DNA of 64,000 nucleotides from Desulfobacterales bacterium (GTDB lineage Bacteria; Desulfobacterota; Desulfobacteria; Desulfobacterales; UBA2245): the NCBI GenBank assembly GCA_040771865.1, contig JAXGZF010000004.1, positions 62,001 through 126,000 of the forward strand. The letters run 5' to 3'. The first letter of the stretch is position 1, and every line of letters begins with the position of its first letter. This document shows positions 39,001 to 48,000 of this stretch, one piece after another. The position numbers were made by a program.

Positions 39001-42000
39001 CTGGCTTCTGGTGGCGATTCTCAAGAAGGGAAGCCTTTAGCAGGCTGTTGAAAAACTGCGCCTGAGATCGCCATTCAGTGTTGCGCGGCTTCCGCCAATG
39101 CTCACATCTGCTTGAATATGCAGTGCTTGTCGCATCGCCGCACGCCTTTCCTGACGGCCTGATTCTTGTTTTTCAACACCCTGTTGGTATTTTTCTACGC
39201 CAAAGAATATCCTGGCCCGTCTCCTCCCTCCGGACATGTCCAGGTGATATTTCCGTAAGGATCCTTGATATCGCAGGTTTTGCAATGCAGGCAGTTGGAT
39301 GGATTAAGCTTCAGCTGCCTTTTACCGGTTTCCGGGTGCACGGCCAGTTCATAGACGCTGCCGGGACAGAACCGGGTGCAGGGGCAGCCGAAGGTCTTGA
39401 AACAGTGGTTGACGCAGACCTCCGTGTTGTGAATGACGATATGCGAGGGCTGGTCTTCCCGATGCCTGGTTTTTGAAAGATAAACGCCGGTCAGTTTGTC
39501 GACGCACAGAATGCCGTCGTAATGCTGAGTTTCTCTTGCGAAATGCGGCTCGGTGATCGGTTTCAGGGTATCGGAATCCGCTTTTAAGGGAAGTGCATCC
39601 CGAATCCCCCTGCCTTTATGGATATATTGGGCGCCAAGGTGAAGGAATTTTTTCAGGCCCTTCATGGCAAGAGCCTGGGAGAAATTTCGGCCTTCGTAGA
39701 TTTCCGAATGGATTGGGCTGTTTTTAATCAGGGTTTCATACCGGTCAAGGCTTTTCCGGGTGAAATCGGCTTCTTTAAAGGCCATTACGATGGTTTCGGC
39801 CGCCAGCATTCCCGATGCCATGGAAACATGAATGCCTTTCAGGGCCGGGGTGCTGTGTATAGCCGCCGCACCCCCCGTCAACAGGGCGCCGTCCATGGCG
39901 AGCCGGGGAATGGAGAAATATCCGCCCGTTGAAACAGTGCGCGCTCCCTGTTCAATGATCTTGCCATTTTTAAGAATGGTTGCGATCAAAGGCTGGCGTT
40001 TGAAGCGGATGAGCATCTCATAGGGGTCCAGGGCCGGATCCTGGTAACACAGTGCGGTCAGATATCCCACAGCCGCCTTGTTGTCCTTCATCTGGTAGAT
40101 GAAGCCGCCGCCGGGCACGTCAAGCCCCAGCGGATAGCCAAGGGTATGGATGTCGTTTCCACGGCTGCTCGAGAAATAATTGCCTTTCGGAAGTTGAATG
40201 ATTTCCTTGATGCCGATTTCATAGACCTGAGGCATGGTGTTGGCGCTGATGTTCAGCCGGGCGTCGAGCTGCTTGACCAGACTGCCTCGAGCGCCTTCGC
40301 CGAACACGCAGACCTTGGCGTGAAGATCGATGCCTGGTTCGAAATTGGTCCTGGGCGATCCGTCCTTGTCCAGTCCCTTGTCTCCGGCGCGAACCCCGAT
40401 GACCGTCCTTTGATCCGGCCCGAAGAGCACCTCGACGCCGGCGAATCCGGGAAAGATGTTGACGCCCAGTTCTTCGGCGATCTGTCCAAGCCAGCGGGTG
40501 AACCGCGAAAGACTGATGATGAAATGTCCCTGATTATGCAGATACCGGGGCACGATTGGAATTCGAAAATGCCTGCCCTGAGTGAGAAAATAAAATTCGT
40601 CGCCCCGAACCACGGTTTCAATCGGGCACCCTTTGTCCATGAAGTCGGGAATCAGCTGTCTTAAGGGCGCGGGATTGAGTACGGCACCGCTGAGCGCATG
40701 AGCGCCGATTTCAGCTCCCTTTTCGATCAGCGCCACTTCAAGATTGAGATTCTTTTCCTTGGACAGTTTCATCAATGCGATAGCGCCAGCCAGATTGGCA
40801 GGCCCGCCGCCGATAAAGAGGACATCAAAATCGATTGATTCGCGTTCCATATTCATGAAACCCCCTTGCGCCTTTAAGATGTGGAATGCTCTTCATCGTC
40901 CAGGGGTTCGATCTGAAAAAATTCTAAAGCATAGTCGTTTCCAGTCTGGACGTCGATCAGTTTGAGGATTTGATGGATCGATCTCTCAAGATTTTGGACC
41001 TGTTCGGGCGCAAGGTTGGCCAGGCCCGAGATCAGCTTGCGTTCGATGGGATCGGGAAGGGTTTTGCTCAGATCCATTCCGCTCGGGGTCAGAGAGATCA
41101 GGTGCACCCGCCGGTCGCCCTTTTTCTGAATCCGAGTCGCCAGCCCTTTACTCTCCAGACGATCGATAATGCCCGTGATGTTGGAAGGAGTGACATGAAG
41201 CTTTCGGCTCAATTGTGCGGAAGACATCTGACCCTGCTGGTAAAGATTTCGAAGCACCATATGCTGGGGACCGGTAAGTCCGAACTGCTTGCTCACCTTG
41301 GACGCATCGCTGTAAACCGCCCGAACCAGGTATCGAATGCCGCTTACAATCTTTTTTATCAACTCTTCGGTTTGGTTGTTCATGGATTGGCTCCAATTTT
41401 TTTCTTCTCATATACATTCACCAAAGAATAGTCAAACCCAAAACAGTTTAAGTGCAAATCGTTCTTCATAAGCTTCGCAGAGATGCTTAAAACAAGAAAC
41501 TGTTGAGGAAGATGGTGCGTTTTTTGCTGCATGCGAATCGGCATCAGATGTCCAGCGCTCGAAACTGGCTTCATAAATACAGGTGTTCGCAGGAAAGGCT
41601 GCTTTGAAAAGTCAACAAATCGGACAACATTGTGAATGAGGCAGGCGTTGCACCTTTAATTTCGGGGAAATCTCCTTGAAAATACCGAGGGCCTCTGATA
41701 GCTTTTTTACAGTTTTTCCAAATCGTTCAATGATTTTTATACAAGCGAGGTAATCTTGAATACTACCGCCAAGTTTAAATCCAAAGCCCTTGAGGTGAAT
41801 ATCGCCGATTATCATGTGGATGTCGCGGTCGATCCCAGATATTTTCCGCTTCAGGATATAATGTCCCAGTACTACGGCGTGATGGAGCGGCTGAATACCT
41901 TTTTATCCGAACTCTCCCATCCTTACAAAAATTGGAGTTTTATTGTTCAGGAAGCCCGGTGCTTTTCTCTGGATTATTTCCATTTGCTGAAGACGCACGC

Positions 42001-45000: not shown

Positions 45001-48000
45001 GGACGAGGGCGTTCAGGTTCTTGAGAATCCCTATGACCAGCTGTTCCTGACGATCAACAAGGTGCTTTTTTCCTGGGAATCACCGAGAGCCAAAACATAC
45101 CGCAGCATCATGGGAATTTCCGATGACTGGGGAACGGCCGTGACGGTGCAGTCCATGGTTTTCGGAAACCTTTCCCGTCAGTCGGGCACCGGCGTTTTTT
45201 TTACCCACAACCCCCGCTGGGCTGGGGACACACTGAACCTGTGGGGTGATTTTACGATCGGAAATCAGGGGGAGGATGTGGTCGCCGGTTTGGTCAAAAC
45301 GCTGCCGGTATCGAACAATCAGCGGGAACTGGAAGTCAGAAAGACCGGAATTTCCCTGGAGACTCATTTCCCTGAAGTGTACAGAACCATGAAGCATTGG
45401 GCCAAGCATCTGATTTTTGAGAGAGGTTGGAGCCCTCAAGAAATTGAATTCACCTTTGAAGGGTCTTCGGCCGGGCAGATTTACCTGCTTCAGAGCCGGG
45501 ACATGGCGATTCGGGAAAGCGAGAAGGTGGCACTGTTCGACCCCGAAGGGTTGAAGCCCGACAAATACCTGGCTCATGGAATCGGGGTCAGCGGAGGCGC
45601 GATGACCGGCAGGCTGGTGTTCAGCATCGAGGAGATCGAAAAATGGCGCACCCTCGAACCGGAACGGCATCTGATTTTGGCCCGCAATGATACAGCACCT
45701 GACGACATTCGGGAAATTTTTGCGGCCGACGGTCTTTTGACCGCCCGCGGCGGGCTTACATCGCATGCTTCGGTCGTGGCCCATCGGCTGGGTAAAACCT
45801 GCGTGGTGGGATGCGCGGACCTGGTATGCGATGAAAAGGAAAAGCGCTGCATGTTTCGAAACGCCGTATTGCTTTCCGGAGATGAGATAAGTATTGACGG
45901 TCAGGAAGGATCCGTTTATCTAGGTTATATGAAGATTCGAAAAACCTGATGGCGCTTTTTTTGAAAAAATTACCCAATTGTTACGGCAAAGCAATGCCGA
46001 TACAAGGTGCTGGAACGGTTCAGTTTCTTCAGATGCGGAAATATTCTGATCCGATCTGAGAATGGTTTTGGATGAAAGGAGGAAAAACATGGCCGCCGGA
46101 AAAGGAAAACTTGGAATAAACGGACTGGGCAGAATCGGTAAACTCACAGTCTGGCACCACGTGGGCCGTAAGTATTTCAATGAGCTGGTGGTCAACATCG
46201 GACGCGAGGCGGGCAAGGGACTGTCAGACATTGCCCACTATCTGGAACGGGATTCCACCTATGGGTCGTTGCAGAGTTATCTCTACGGGTTCAAGGGAAA
46301 ACCGCTCATCGAGCAACTGGATGAGAAAAGCGGAACGATGGTGGTCGATGGAATCAAGCTGTACCTGCTCCGTTCGCAGAGAAATCCAAGAGATATTCCG
46401 TGGCGGGATCACGGAGTGAGGCTGGTTGTGGACACTACTGGATCCTTTTTGGATCCCACGCTGGCGCCGGATCATCCAAAAGGCTCGGTTCGCGGCCATA
46501 TAGAAGCCGGCGCCGACAAGGTGGTTGTGTCCGCGCCCTTTAAAATCAAGGATAAGGGAAAACCCATGCCCGAGGATGCGGTGACCACGGTCATGGGAAT
46601 CAATGCCAGCGTCTATGATGTCCGCCGGCACAGAATCATATCCAACGCCTCCTGCACCACCACCTGCCTGGCGCACATGATCAAGCCACTACTGGATCAT
46701 TTCGGTCCGAAGCGGATTCTTTCCGCATCCATGGCTACGATACATGCGGCCACAGGTTCGCAAGCGGTTCTGGATCGTCTGCCCAAGGCCGACGCCACGG
46801 ATCTGAGAAAAACACGCAGTACCAGCAACAATATCATTCTGACAAGTACCGGCGCTGCAAACGCTCTGAAGCTGGTGATTCCGGAAATGGAAGACATCCG
46901 GTTCATCGCCGAATCGGTCCGCGTACCCATCACCACGGGGTCTCTGATCATTCTGATGGTCAACATGCAGGAAAAACTTGCTTCAGAGCCCATTCGCCGC
47001 GAGACCGTCAACAGCATCTACCGGAACGCGGCTCTTCAGGATTCAAAAGGGTATCTGCTTTATTCGGAAGATCAGAACGTCTCCGGAGACATCATTGGAA
47101 CCCCCCGGGCCGCTGCGGTAATAGAGGGACATGAGACCCACACCCGCACCGCAGAGGTCAGCATTGATCTGAACAAGGTGCCTGGAGTGGAAAAATATCT
47201 CACCGGACCGCTCAAGGAAGCCGTGATTCGCGTACCCGTAACCCAGACCGTCATCTTTGGCTGGTATGACAACGAAATGGGCAGTTATGTCAACATTCTG
47301 GGAGACCGGGTCGTAACCGTTGCCGAACAGCTTTTATAAAGGATTTGATTCTTCTCCGGGGAAAAAGATTCCGCTGGCGATCATCTGGTTGCTCAGGCGA
47401 ACGAACTCTTCGACGGTCAGGGTTTCAGCCCGGCGGCCGGTGTCGATGCCCGCCTGATGGAGAACCTCGAAACCGGCCGAATCCAGATGCAGTTCACTTC
47501 CGGCCAGCGCATTTCGCATGGTTTTTCGCCGGTGTCCGAATGCGGCTTTGATTACCTTGAAGAGGTGCCTTTCATCAATGGCCGGATAGCGGGGTTCCAG
47601 AAAATCGATGGCCAGGACCGTGGAGTCCACCTTGGGCCTGGGATGAAACTGGGAGGCACTGATCTGGAGGATAGGACGCACTTCCGCGCAATAGGCCGTC
47701 ATGGCCGTCAACCGGCCGTAATCCTTTCCGCCCGGTTTTGCGCTGATCCGCTGTGCAAGCTCTTTTTGAAGCATGACCACGGCCCGGTATACCGCTTGTC
47801 GAAAGCGGATCAGCTTGACGATGATCTGGGATGAGATATTGTAAGGCAGATTGCCCATGACCCACAGCCTGCCGCTTTCACGCTCCGCCAGCGGTATGAG
47901 GTCAAGTTTCAAAATGTCAGCTTCCAGTATGGTTACATTGTCGATGTGTTGAGCCAGAAGCTCGGCGCTCAGAATTTGAATCAGATCACGGTCCTTCTCG

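Follow-up and report, generated by a model that had tools for sequence, protein, structure and literature searches.

A giant protein carrying half of a pyruvate, phosphate dikinase and its long GAPDH partner in Desulfobacterota: a candidate dikinase or histidine kinase at the GAPDH/PGK step

The locus and its two genes

The window, i.e. the whole stretch of 64,000 nucleotides that was analysed, derives from a Desulfobacterales bacterium and harbours two neighbouring genes on the forward (+) strand. The first gene (41756..45949, +), which was identified by ORF call, Pfam and NCBIfam, starts with a TTG codon downstream of GAGGT and encodes a half-PPDK protein of 1397 aa, hereafter called the giant. 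The second gene (46062..47339, +) is an open reading frame of 425 aa with a likely ATG start at 46089 after AGGAGG and encodes the long GAPDH paralogue GapL. In the giant, Pfam detects PF01326 at residues 953-1198 and PF00391 at residues 1305-1385 and no match to the PEP/pyruvate barrel PF02896; the protein ends 60 residues past His1337. Thus, the nucleotide-binding and phospho-His domains of PPDK without the pyruvate domain, as proposed in a preliminary description of the locus, were found again. The same is true for the placement of both proteins below the NCBIfam cut-offs, with 396.8 bits for the giant against TIGR01828 (cut-off 843.45) and 322.6 bits for GapL against the GAPDH model TIGR01534 (cut-off 367.2). 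PEPS-type models, which give 72-79 bits at cut-offs of 598-740, remain far below threshold, and the barrel is absent. Members of the family are labelled as pyruvate, phosphate dikinase in databases, and this routine mislabelling inflates the pyruvate-to-PEP capacity of genome models.

The PPDK-type ATP-grasp domain (about residues 911-1260; 44486..45535, +) was delimited by Pfam, by alignment and by the fit to the PPDK structure 1kbl. Alignment to 1kbl and to the organism's own PPDK revealed that K915, R987, E1229, E1231, Q1246 and R1248 are kept in 53-55 of 55 members. These six residues correspond to K22, R92, D321, E323, Q335 and R337 of the PPDK nucleotide site, of which K22 and R337 are also named in PDB titles. 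The His swivel domain (PF00391; 45563..45946, +) carries T1335-S-H1337 (His codon 45764-45766) within the GGxTSHA phospho-His motif of the PPDK swivel; H1337 is present in all 55 core members and T1335 in 54 of them. Moreover, the model of the giant fits 1kbl with an rmsd of 2.9 over 539 columns at about 33% identity. Judged by these conserved residues, the ATP-grasp and the His1337 swivel of the giant are intact and of the PPDK type.

The N-terminal region consists of two parts. Residues 1-334 (41756..42757, +) are variable, with few conserved columns, and appear all-helical and HEAT/solenoid-like: the model shows nothing but helices there, and the fold matches are to helical repeat proteins of a generic kind (Z<=10.1). 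Residues 335-895 (42758..44440, +) form a conserved core with invariant basic and acidic residues, which is the presumed acceptor domain. This core contains the conserved block DTDL (444), GAEG (482) and HFLRKQSHVES (506-516) at 43085..43303 (+) and, according to alignment and model, a conserved beta-hairpin (residues 680-702; 43793..43861, +) with KRH at 686-688. The basic residues H406, R488, R509, K510, H513, K618, K686, R687 and H688 and the acidic residues D444, D446, E484, D495, E515, E681 and E702 each occur in 55 of 55 core members, and 93 positions of the N-domain are conserved at >=92%. The motifs of the preliminary description, including TSHA at 1335 and, in GapL, NIGR, are all present at their places, as is SCTT of GapL, and its model confidence of about 85 agrees with the pLDDT of 85.8 obtained for the N-region.

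The region of about 900 residues had also been described as helical and devoid of a known family or a PDB sequence match, and both points hold. Pfam searches with 55 N-regions yielded scattered weak matches and no family common to more than 3 of 55 at E<=0.1, and no PDB sequence match was found below E 0.07. A fold search with the 900-residue model, which is too long for single-domain sensitivity according to the tool, returned helical repeats and bundles of a generic kind and nothing else (best Z 10.1), and this is no proof of a new fold. The best ESM Atlas score was 0.84, to clusters without names, and no nucleotide-binding fold was seen in the N-domain model. These fold matches are uninformative about the substrate, which counts against assigning 3-phosphoglycerate (3-PG). 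A complex prediction of residues 335-895 with one GapL chain, from which the His domain was left out, scored 0.00 (mark 0.32) and speaks neither for nor against an interaction.

GapL and its His360 loop

As had been proposed, GapL retains the catalytic Cys and His (C198, H228), together with T231, R287 and N404, and carries NIGR at 45-48 in place of the NAD-specifying Asp32. SCTT (at 197 in GapL), H-x-x-T and WYDNE are found in 139 of 139 near-full GapL sequences; N/S-x-G-R is likewise found in all 139, with the Asp absent in both alignment registers, R287 is invariant in 101, and T231 is invariant as well. The missing Asp and the invariant G47-R48 suggest that GapL is NADP-type. GapL forms a separate, long-branched clade (support 100) with five insertions and about 80 extra residues. 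In erythrose-4-phosphate dehydrogenase (Epd), the Thr179 site is lost; since T231 is invariant in GapL and the Epd model TIGR01532 gives 121.6 bits, far below its cut-off of 530.55, GapL is not an Epd. GapL is the sole PF02800 gene in two closed genomes (G027, G065) and must therefore be a working GAPDH. Furthermore, the short gap lacks SCTT in three genomes (G098, G190, G297). From both observations, the substrate of GapL is very likely 1,3-bisphosphoglycerate (1,3-BPG)/GAP. No relaxed selection on the giant was seen after loss of the short gap; the deviations are family-wide in f36.

The ETHTRT motif of GapL (His360 codon 47139-47141, and Arg362), together with the GapL-specific insertion that follows it (47133..47246, +), tracks the presence of the giant. 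His360 occurs in 138 of 140 readable GapL sequences encoded beside a giant (the other two have Asp and Glu) and in 101 of 101 matched to a giant by genome. By contrast, of 15 genomes that have GapL but lack the giant, 14 have lost it; they represent five lineages and have Tyr, Arg, Glu or Asn at this position, and the 15th has lost Arg362 and the loop. His360 and Arg362 are altered in all five giant-less lineages, together with the change V236I, which also occurs in 5 linked rows. When the changes were placed at random, with equal mutability of columns assumed, a single such column arose in 253 of 200,000 trials and a pair in none. Exceptions exist: G577 retains His360, and two draft genomes (G538, G540) combine an intact-looking giant with only an Arg360 GapL. 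Family f36 saw at least two losses of the giant in which GapL was retained. GapL with the His is also found in records labelled Lentimicrobiaceae and Bacteroidales. Thus, the His360-Thr-Arg362 loop depends on the giant, and the giant appears, from these sequence patterns, to work directly on GapL via one histidine loop.

Distribution and genomic context

Among 301 genomes of the phylum, the N-region was matched in 90 (85 at E<1e-50), and about 28% of the sample has the family. Both genes are present in 84 genomes; six have only the giant (two fragments, four distant members) and three only GapL. The conserved module previously proposed for the Desulfobacterota is therefore upheld, with the amendment that the family extends to records labelled Nitrospirae, Bacteroidales, Cloacimonadota, Clostridia, Thermoleophilia and Fermentibacteria. 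At the level of the order, for which the preliminary description gave 445 of 811 genomes, a different sample yielded 72 of 150. GapL lies immediately downstream of the giant in 48 of 60 fetched loci (one a broken pair), which bears out the reported pairing. The short gap is located inside the locus in 30 of 60, directly upstream of the giant in 25, and pgk in 18; a position between canonical gap and pgk, which had been called frequent, is literally found in only 6 of the 60. Loci without an adjacent GAPDH paralogue had been regarded as possible counter-evidence, but all eight such core loci belong to genomes with GapL elsewhere and are no counter-examples. One draft genome (G481) has the giant and no GapL. 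A deep-branch giant occurs in nine genomes of one order sample, and the matching deep-type GapL lies beside it in 8 of 9; the pair thus moved as one. With adjacency judged at the locus only, GapL is not adjacent in 29 of the 57 deep-branch loci from metagenomes that were informative. A mirror-tree analysis of 52 pairs, with shared ancestry uncontrolled, gave r 0.78 for the N-domain and 0.77 for the C-half against GapL and was left out of the argument. Besides GAPDH, pgk and tpi, no gene recurs beside the giant across lineages.

In four runs of a single study on an anaerobic digester, RNA contigs span the greater part of GapL and short pieces of the giant and its neighbours; DNA carry-over is possible, and the contig depth is unfit for ranking genes. 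Promoter and terminator scans remained at chance level.

The genome also encodes a full PPDK (contig C7), a short gap (C3) and pgk (C7), so that the normal ppdK and gap are indeed present besides the pair. All 80 genomes examined retain PGK (79 near full length), including G027, which lacks the short gap; replacement of PGK by the giant was thus rejected. The NAD kinase family PF01513 exceeds its cut-off in all 50 giant-bearing genomes searched, and replacement of NAD kinase was rejected as well.

In 2 of 6 loci, the gene for a member of a distant subfamily (about 29% identity) immediately precedes that for a short, unrelated GAPDH. This GAPDH lacks Asp32 (AANSPA), occurs in 4 of 5 distant-subfamily genomes searched and has Lys at the His360 place and no loop. 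The common link is thus the GAPDH reaction, not one protein. All nine basic residues listed above are retained in the three aligned distant members, and D446, E484 and E515 are altered; this split comes from one clade, in which 58-61 of 177 conserved sites (a third) differ. The pattern is as would be expected for a small-molecule pocket together with an acidic docking patch. Two relatives carry an N-terminal hemerythrin domain, and according to a Pfam check a GAF-sigma54 activator follows the most distant members in two loci.

Proposed function and alternatives

The preliminary description proposed a new dikinase at the GAPDH/PGK step. The module and its place are strengthened by co-inheritance, by joint transfer of the pair, by the two closed genomes in which GapL is the sole GAPDH and by decay of the loop upon loss of the giant; the metabolite-dikinase activity is the likelier option and no more. 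We tentatively prefer, at a probability somewhat short of even, a 3-PG dikinase that is docked on GapL and drives gluconeogenesis. The N-terminal domain would bind 3-PG, and ATP, probably with Pi as in PPDK, would phosphorylate His1337 at the ATP-grasp, yielding AMP (and PPi). The His domain would then swing over and, at the N-domain's basic pocket, phosphorylate the carboxylate of 3-PG. Docked via the His360-Thr-Arg362 loop, the giant would pass the labile 1,3-BPG to GapL, which would reduce it with NADPH. Such a gluconeogenic route beside PGK and the NAD-type Gap would be far easier to drive: by textbook values, the balance is about +4 kJ/mol with PPi kept and about -15 with PPi hydrolysed, versus about +19 for PGK. 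In reverse, it could form ATP from AMP and PPi. The NADP preference, the physical docking, the use of Pi, the substrate and the direction are what we infer. Among characterised relatives in which the acceptor domain has been swapped, the substrates are small molecules or glucan (PMC12167813, PMC13553574).

Several observations count against a 3-PG dikinase. PGK is never lost, so that nothing has been replaced, and the residue most closely tied to the giant is a His in H-T-R, more in keeping with a phospho-acceptor than with a simple contact. Furthermore, GapL outlives the giant in f36, the G538/G540 and G481 cases do not conform, the basic/acidic split derives from one clade, and about half of the deep-branch loci lack an adjacent GapL. 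Almost as good a fit is a protein histidine kinase that resembles Enzyme I and is driven by ATP. This option, which the preliminary description had not considered, is a possible, if doubtful, reading; a metabolite dikinase is likelier. Here, the helical N-domain would hold GapL, and phospho-His1337 would donate its phosphate to GapL His360, thereby switching an NADPH-dependent GAPDH on or off and preventing futile cycling with the NAD-type Gap. As the PPDK half-reaction is reversible, phosphorylation would track ATP x Pi / AMP x PPi. The His360 counts, the paired change of H360 and R362, the constant presence of PGK, the solenoid-like N-terminus and the hemerythrin and activator links favour this kinase, as does the identity of the GapL motif with His15-Thr16-Arg17 in HPr of E. 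coli (PMC8509676). HPr accepts phosphate from Enzyme I, whose carrier domain belongs to the same PF00391 family. However, the distant subfamily keeps RKQxH and KRH although its partner has Lys and no loop, G577, G538 and G540 deviate, and the shuffle test presumes equal mutability. The His of HPr precedes a helix, whereas His360 aligns with a beta-hairpin of GAPDH, so that the motif likeness may be due to chance. Should the kinase reading apply, the giant might found a class of ATP/PPi-coupled, PPDK-derived protein histidine kinases that are unrelated to two-component kinases and read the adenylate-pyrophosphate balance. It might, with similar doubt, set phospho-His on a gluconeogenic GAPDH via an HPr-like loop, and hemerythrin- or activator-linked members could serve other inputs and targets.

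Other explanations are far less probable. A dikinase for another molecule of the triose pool (glycerate, glyceraldehyde, dihydroxyacetone or a four-carbon acid), GapL-docked or co-regulated, is improbable: hydroxyls are frequent targets of swivel dikinases that have acquired new acceptor domains (PMC12167813, PMC4844700) and the basic pocket points to no particular ligand, but only GAPDH, pgk and tpi recur nearby, and a labile intermediate shared by both proteins is the best explanation for contact with GapL. Quite improbable is a catalytic relay, in which the giant would phosphorylate His360 and GapL would activate bound 3-PG without free 1,3-BPG. It would explain the same dependence and the strict need for His, but by alignment His360 lies at what we take from GAPDH structures to be the far end of the strand leading to Asn313, remote from the catalytic Cys; moreover, giant-less GapL persists with other residues, and this His is missing from the GAPDH that partners the distant subfamily. 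The database labels would suit a split PPDK, with the giant as the half that hands phosphate on to a pyruvate-binding barrel encoded elsewhere, or else an inactive PPDK fragment that was mis-called. This is very improbable, and a split PPDK was rejected, as the sole PF02896 match of the genome lies within the full PPDK and PF02896 is missing at E<=1e-20 from 4 of 80 genomes, including a closed one; the 93 conserved N-domain positions also speak against it. An NAD(H) dikinase feeding NADP(H) to an Asp32-less GAPDH agrees with the missing Asp32 in both partner types and is extremely improbable, given PF01513 in all genomes searched and an N-domain model without a nucleotide-binding fold.

Few steps of metabolism are as uniform as that of PGK and GAPDH, and the pair may represent an undescribed step or switch in anaerobe sugar synthesis. 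If the 3-PG dikinase is real, it would be an AMP/PPi-linked alternative to PGK by which energy-poor sulfate reducers, syntrophs and fermenters could drive gluconeogenesis or regain ATP from PPi; if the kinase is real, GAPDH would be controlled by a histidine kinase of a new type. In line with the preliminary description, no paper on the giant was found in titles and the beginnings of abstracts, subscription journals lying outside the search. The sole match to "phosphoglycerate dikinase" was a rice proteomics paper (PMC5213780), and excerpts of PMC8691401 and PMC12994167 mention only ordinary PPDK.

Comparison with known systems

The giant resembles PPDK (TIGR01828; C. symbiosum 1kbl/1dik) in the order of an ATP-grasp with helical subdomain and a His swivel and in the retained nucleotide-site residues and T-x-H. 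It differs by the missing C-terminal barrel, the 900 extra N-terminal residues, the score far below cut-off and the tie to GAPDH. Its grasp is of the PPDK type (397 bits), not of the PEPS type. With an ATP-grasp, a swivel and a separate non-barrel domain as the putative acceptor, it is also similar to rifampin phosphotransferase (RPH), HpeHI/PpsAB/CreHI and glucan water dikinase (GWD); the acceptor domain of GWD is likewise all-helical (PMC13553574, PMC12167813). The order is acceptor, ATP-grasp, His in the giant, ATP-grasp, acceptor, His in RPH, and CBMs, central domain, His, ATP-grasp in GWD (PMC13553574). The giant is not a GWD by order, with the His after the grasp and no CBM in Pfam, where GWD has CBM45. 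No sequence match of the N-domain to swapped-acceptor dikinases was found in PDB sequences or Pfam. The RPH-type substrate-domain fold was not among the fold matches of the over-long 900-residue model, and neither was the 20-helix central fold of GWD (9HA9, 9QVI) among those listed, from a library that may omit these entries.

PspR of Haloferax, a PPS-like regulator, also has ATP-binding and His domains and no pyruvate barrel (PMC10948481); it is an RPH-like DNA-binding repressor, whereas no sign of DNA binding is seen in the giant. Enzyme I/HPr shares the PF00391 carrier domain, a neighbouring helical domain and the candidate acceptor motif His-Thr-Arg (PMC8509676). In the giant, however, the donor would be ATP via the ATP-grasp and the acceptor a GAPDH hairpin instead of HPr; Pfam finds neither the Enzyme I N-terminal domain nor a PEP-binding barrel. 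GapL, finally, is comparable to B. subtilis GapB and other NADP-type class I GAPDHs, as it keeps the catalytic residues and lacks Asp32, which binds the NAD 2'-OH (PMC3728087). Its profile matches best the PDB entry 8wwz, "glyceraldehyde-3-phosphate dehydrogenase 2" (E 6.5e-56), slightly above NAD-type enzymes. It differs from GapB in its separate clade, its insertions and extra residues and its partner-dependent His loop.

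The giant gene, GapL and their surroundings

The giant half-PPDK is encoded at 41756-45949 on the + strand (1397 aa) and is followed, after a gap of 112 bases, by the gene for the long GAPDH paralogue GapL (46062-47339, + strand, 425 aa). The neighbours of the pair are a MarR gene in divergent and an rsmA gene in convergent orientation. Pfam searches place PF01326 at residues 953-1198 and PF00391 at residues 1305-1385 of the giant and revealed no PF02896, and both proteins score under their own NCBIfam cut-offs. The preliminary description, which had reported this gene pair, its domain content, the missing pyruvate domain and the sub-cut-off scores, concerns a real observation: all of these were found again, and every motif that it listed was located in the two proteins. 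Other contigs of the same genome carry pgk, a complete PPDK and a short gap of the NAD type. Next to the pair, the MarR regulator and an ETF-quinone oxidoreductase (39195-41383, - strand) diverge from the giant gene, a neighbourhood that is not conserved elsewhere. The window also encodes an 808-aa NACHT/NB-ARC and TPR protein (34319-36745, - strand), possibly a STAND protein in defence or signalling, and a 125-aa protein (48641-49018, + strand) that matches phasin weakly and ends in an HTH-like tail.

Domain structure of the giant

The C-terminal 500 residues of the giant match the PPDK of C. symbiosum with an E value of 1.5e-87, and the structural model of the C-terminal part superimposes on 1kbl with an rmsd of 2.9 over 539 columns. 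K915, R987, E1231, Q1246, R1248 and H1337 are each present in 55/55 core members of the family, E1229 in 53/55 and T1335 in 54/55; the equivalents of these residues have assigned roles in PPDK. The ATP-grasp scores 397 bits as PPDK-type versus 72-79 bits as PEPS-type, which favours Pi as a candidate co-substrate. The model of the N-terminal 900 residues (pLDDT 85.8) is helical apart from a single conserved beta-hairpin (680-702). Residues 1-330 are variable; in the segment 335-895, conservation reaches at least 92% at 93 positions, 28 of which are charged. The DTDL, GAEG, RKQxH and KRH blocks are shared by most of 39 aligned full-length representatives (clustered at 50% identity), down to about 30% identity. 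Searches with this region found neither a family nor a PDB sequence match, and no clear fold. Judged by its sequence, the giant clearly keeps the complete ATP-to-His half of a dikinase, joined to a new domain that is conserved.

Co-inheritance of the giant and GapL

Among 301 genomes of the phylum, 90 match the N-terminal region and 87 GapL, with both in 84. The six genomes with only the giant comprise G132 with a fragment, G079 and four with very distant members of family f61. In G079, two deletions have fused a remnant of the giant to the end of GapL (L082:9268-10717), and both genes were thus lost together. In the 60 of the 90 loci that were fetched, GapL lies downstream in the same orientation in 36 (one of them broken and another truncated by a contig end), is convergent in 12 and absent in 12. 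The canonical short gap directly precedes the giant in 25/60 loci, pgk lies inside 18/60, and the order gap-giant-GapL-pgk-tpi is complete in six. For the eight core loci lacking GapL, the gene is found elsewhere in all eight genomes, beside pgk and tpi in six. GapL comes next in 59 of 80 close relatives from a species collection, and the sequences of the other 21 end in the giant or no more than about 320 bases beyond it. The giant occurs in 72 and GapL in 80 genomes of an order-level sample of 150; nine of these have a deep-branch giant, which a deep-branch GapL adjoins in 8/9, which argues that the two genes were acquired together.

In the phylum to which a Nitrospirae-labelled genome belongs, 15/101 genomes match the giant, and GapL is adjacent in 8 of the 14 loci fetched. 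A metagenome motif scan found 120 stretches, and among the 80 analysed GapL is present in 28, absent in 29 with at least 700 bases available downstream, and 23 are too short. A short NAD-type gap stands head to head with the giant in 16 of the 29 stretches lacking GapL. Source labels include Cloacimonadota, Clostridia, Bacteroidales, Thermoleophilia and Fermentibacteria. In the closed genome G065, the giant consists of two overlapping ORFs that break near residue 600 (L081:6942-11058), which reflects a frameshift or a sequencing error. Two other members of the family (P0151 and P0156) carry an N-terminal hemerythrin domain (PF01814).

GapL as a GAPDH

SCTT, the catalytic His, the phosphate-site Thr and WYDNE are kept in 139/139 near-full GapL sequences. 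At the place of NDL in the short enzymes, GapL has N/S-x-G-R. Asp32 binds the 2'-OH of NAD (PMC3728087), and GapL lacking this residue may therefore prefer NADP. A further GAPDH-family gene was found in 77/80 genomes searched; the closed genomes G027 and G065 and the draft G066 have no GAPDH match besides GapL, as confirmed with a close short-gap query. The short gap of G098, G190 and G297 no longer has SCTT. Together, these cases indicate that GapL is a working GAPDH that can serve the 1,3-BPG/GAP step without another GAPDH. A PGK match is kept in 80/80 genomes.

The degenerate short gap genes of G098, G190 and G297 lie upstream of the giant (L076:12199-13200, L077:12336-13340 and L173:7093-8094), keep full length, have SSCISN or ASSICVC for ASCTTNC and lack the TGA motif; their product is possibly a non-catalytic GAPDH. 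The closed genome G100 carries GapL with pgk twice with identical scores (C1, 505500 and 1778704), a recent duplication. A divergent PGK-family gene (about 270 versus about 510 bits) is a second copy or the sole match in G249, G267, G161, G273, G074, G300, G298, G130 and G163. At E<=1e-20, PF02896 matched nothing in four genomes of family f22 (G013, G089, G182 and G239, one closed). PPDK, PEPS and Enzyme I were thus not found there, and PEP must come by another route.

The His360 loop of GapL depends on the giant

His360 of GapL lies in an ETHTRT motif directly ahead of a GapL-specific insertion. It occurs without exception in the 101 GapL that were matched to a giant by genome, in 117/118 homologues from a database search and in 138/140 readable GapL sharing a locus with the giant (six further copies are cut short, and the copies are not independent as loci overlap in genomes); the two exceptions have Asp and Glu. 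Profile searches, one of them run with two positive controls, found no giant in 13 genomes that have GapL, and in every one of these residue 360 is Tyr, Glu or Arg. Family f36 was tested afresh with the best 30 of its 45 GapL loci. The giant is upstream in 26 (motif intact in 25, cut short in one), one locus at a contig edge has an intact motif and the giant elsewhere, and the giant is lost in three, with the motif damaged in 3/3. GapL of G297 carries H>Y and R>H with a shortened loop, that of G578 H>N and R>I, and that of G577 retains His with R>C and a shortened loop. A tree built without the motif columns places G297 beside an intact pair, and G577 together with G578 in a different position.

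Three conserved columns are altered in all five giant-less lineages: H360, R362 and V236I, the last a conservative change. With 12 of 15 sequences entered and equal mutability assumed, none of 200,000 random placements produced two such columns. Counter-cases are the drafts G538 (two copies) and G540, which pair an Arg360 GapL with an intact-looking giant. The draft G481 has a giant, and a search for GapL there found none. In G518, the linked GapL copy has His and the unlinked one Arg. The giant is clearly inherited together with a functional GAPDH that has no Asp32 and whose His loop decays when the giant is absent. The simplest inference from the decay of H360 and R362 is that the giant and GapL would touch directly at this loop.

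Partner swap in a distant subfamily

A distant subfamily of about 1470 aa shares 27-30% identity with the giant. Its members directly precede a separate-branch short GAPDH without Asp32 (AANSPA) in 2/6 loci, and this GAPDH, which has no His loop, is present in 4/5 of the genomes searched. The three aligned giants of the subfamily keep H406, R488, R509, K510, H513, K618, K686, R687 and H688, and D446, E484 and E515 are changed. The L220-type giant of Bacteroidales retains all three of these acidic residues. This suggests that the basic residues could form a pocket for a small phosphorylated acid common to all members, and the acidic ones a patch meeting the His/Arg loop of GapL; the split is suggestive only because it comes from one clade in which one third of the conserved sites have changed. 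Very distant f61 members (L083-L086; 1500 aa, GAH for TSH, altered N-domain motifs) have lost both sets and have no GapL. A GAF-sigma54 activator follows the member in L085 and L086, the two loci checked by Pfam, with a similar gene in L084, and f61 is likely a regulatory offshoot.

Possible reactions of the giant

It is probable that the giant acts directly on or with GapL. The reading that we favour, with some reserve, is that it would be a 3-PG dikinase channelling its product to GapL. Such a route would offer a thermodynamic gain over PGK, and it would explain the operon position, the retained basic residues and the partner swap. The giant might instead be a protein-His kinase acting on GapL, a tentative alternative that we hold somewhat less probable. 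It would explain why PGK is never lost, and why the critical residue is a histidine within a His-Thr-Arg motif resembling that of HPr (PMC8509676).

Each of the other proposals is weaker than these two. Another small acceptor for the giant is improbable, and a catalytic relay slightly more so. That the giant represents a split PPDK is very unlikely, and least likely of all is an NAD kinase; PF01513 is present in 50/50 giant-bearing genomes searched.

Relation to known dikinases

The features tested exclude PPDK, PEPS, GWD and Enzyme I as the identity of the giant. Literature searches covering titles and the opening of abstracts in openly accessible papers found no description of the family. 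Three results are new from this analysis: GapL as the only GAPDH of some genomes, the dependence of His360 on the giant, and the swap of the GAPDH partner. RPH, HpeHI and GWD are swivel dikinases with swapped acceptor domains, and the giant resembles them in its working (PMC12167813, PMC13553574, PMC4844700). Compared with these enzymes, both the acceptor - grasp - His order and the presumed acceptor domain of the giant are new.
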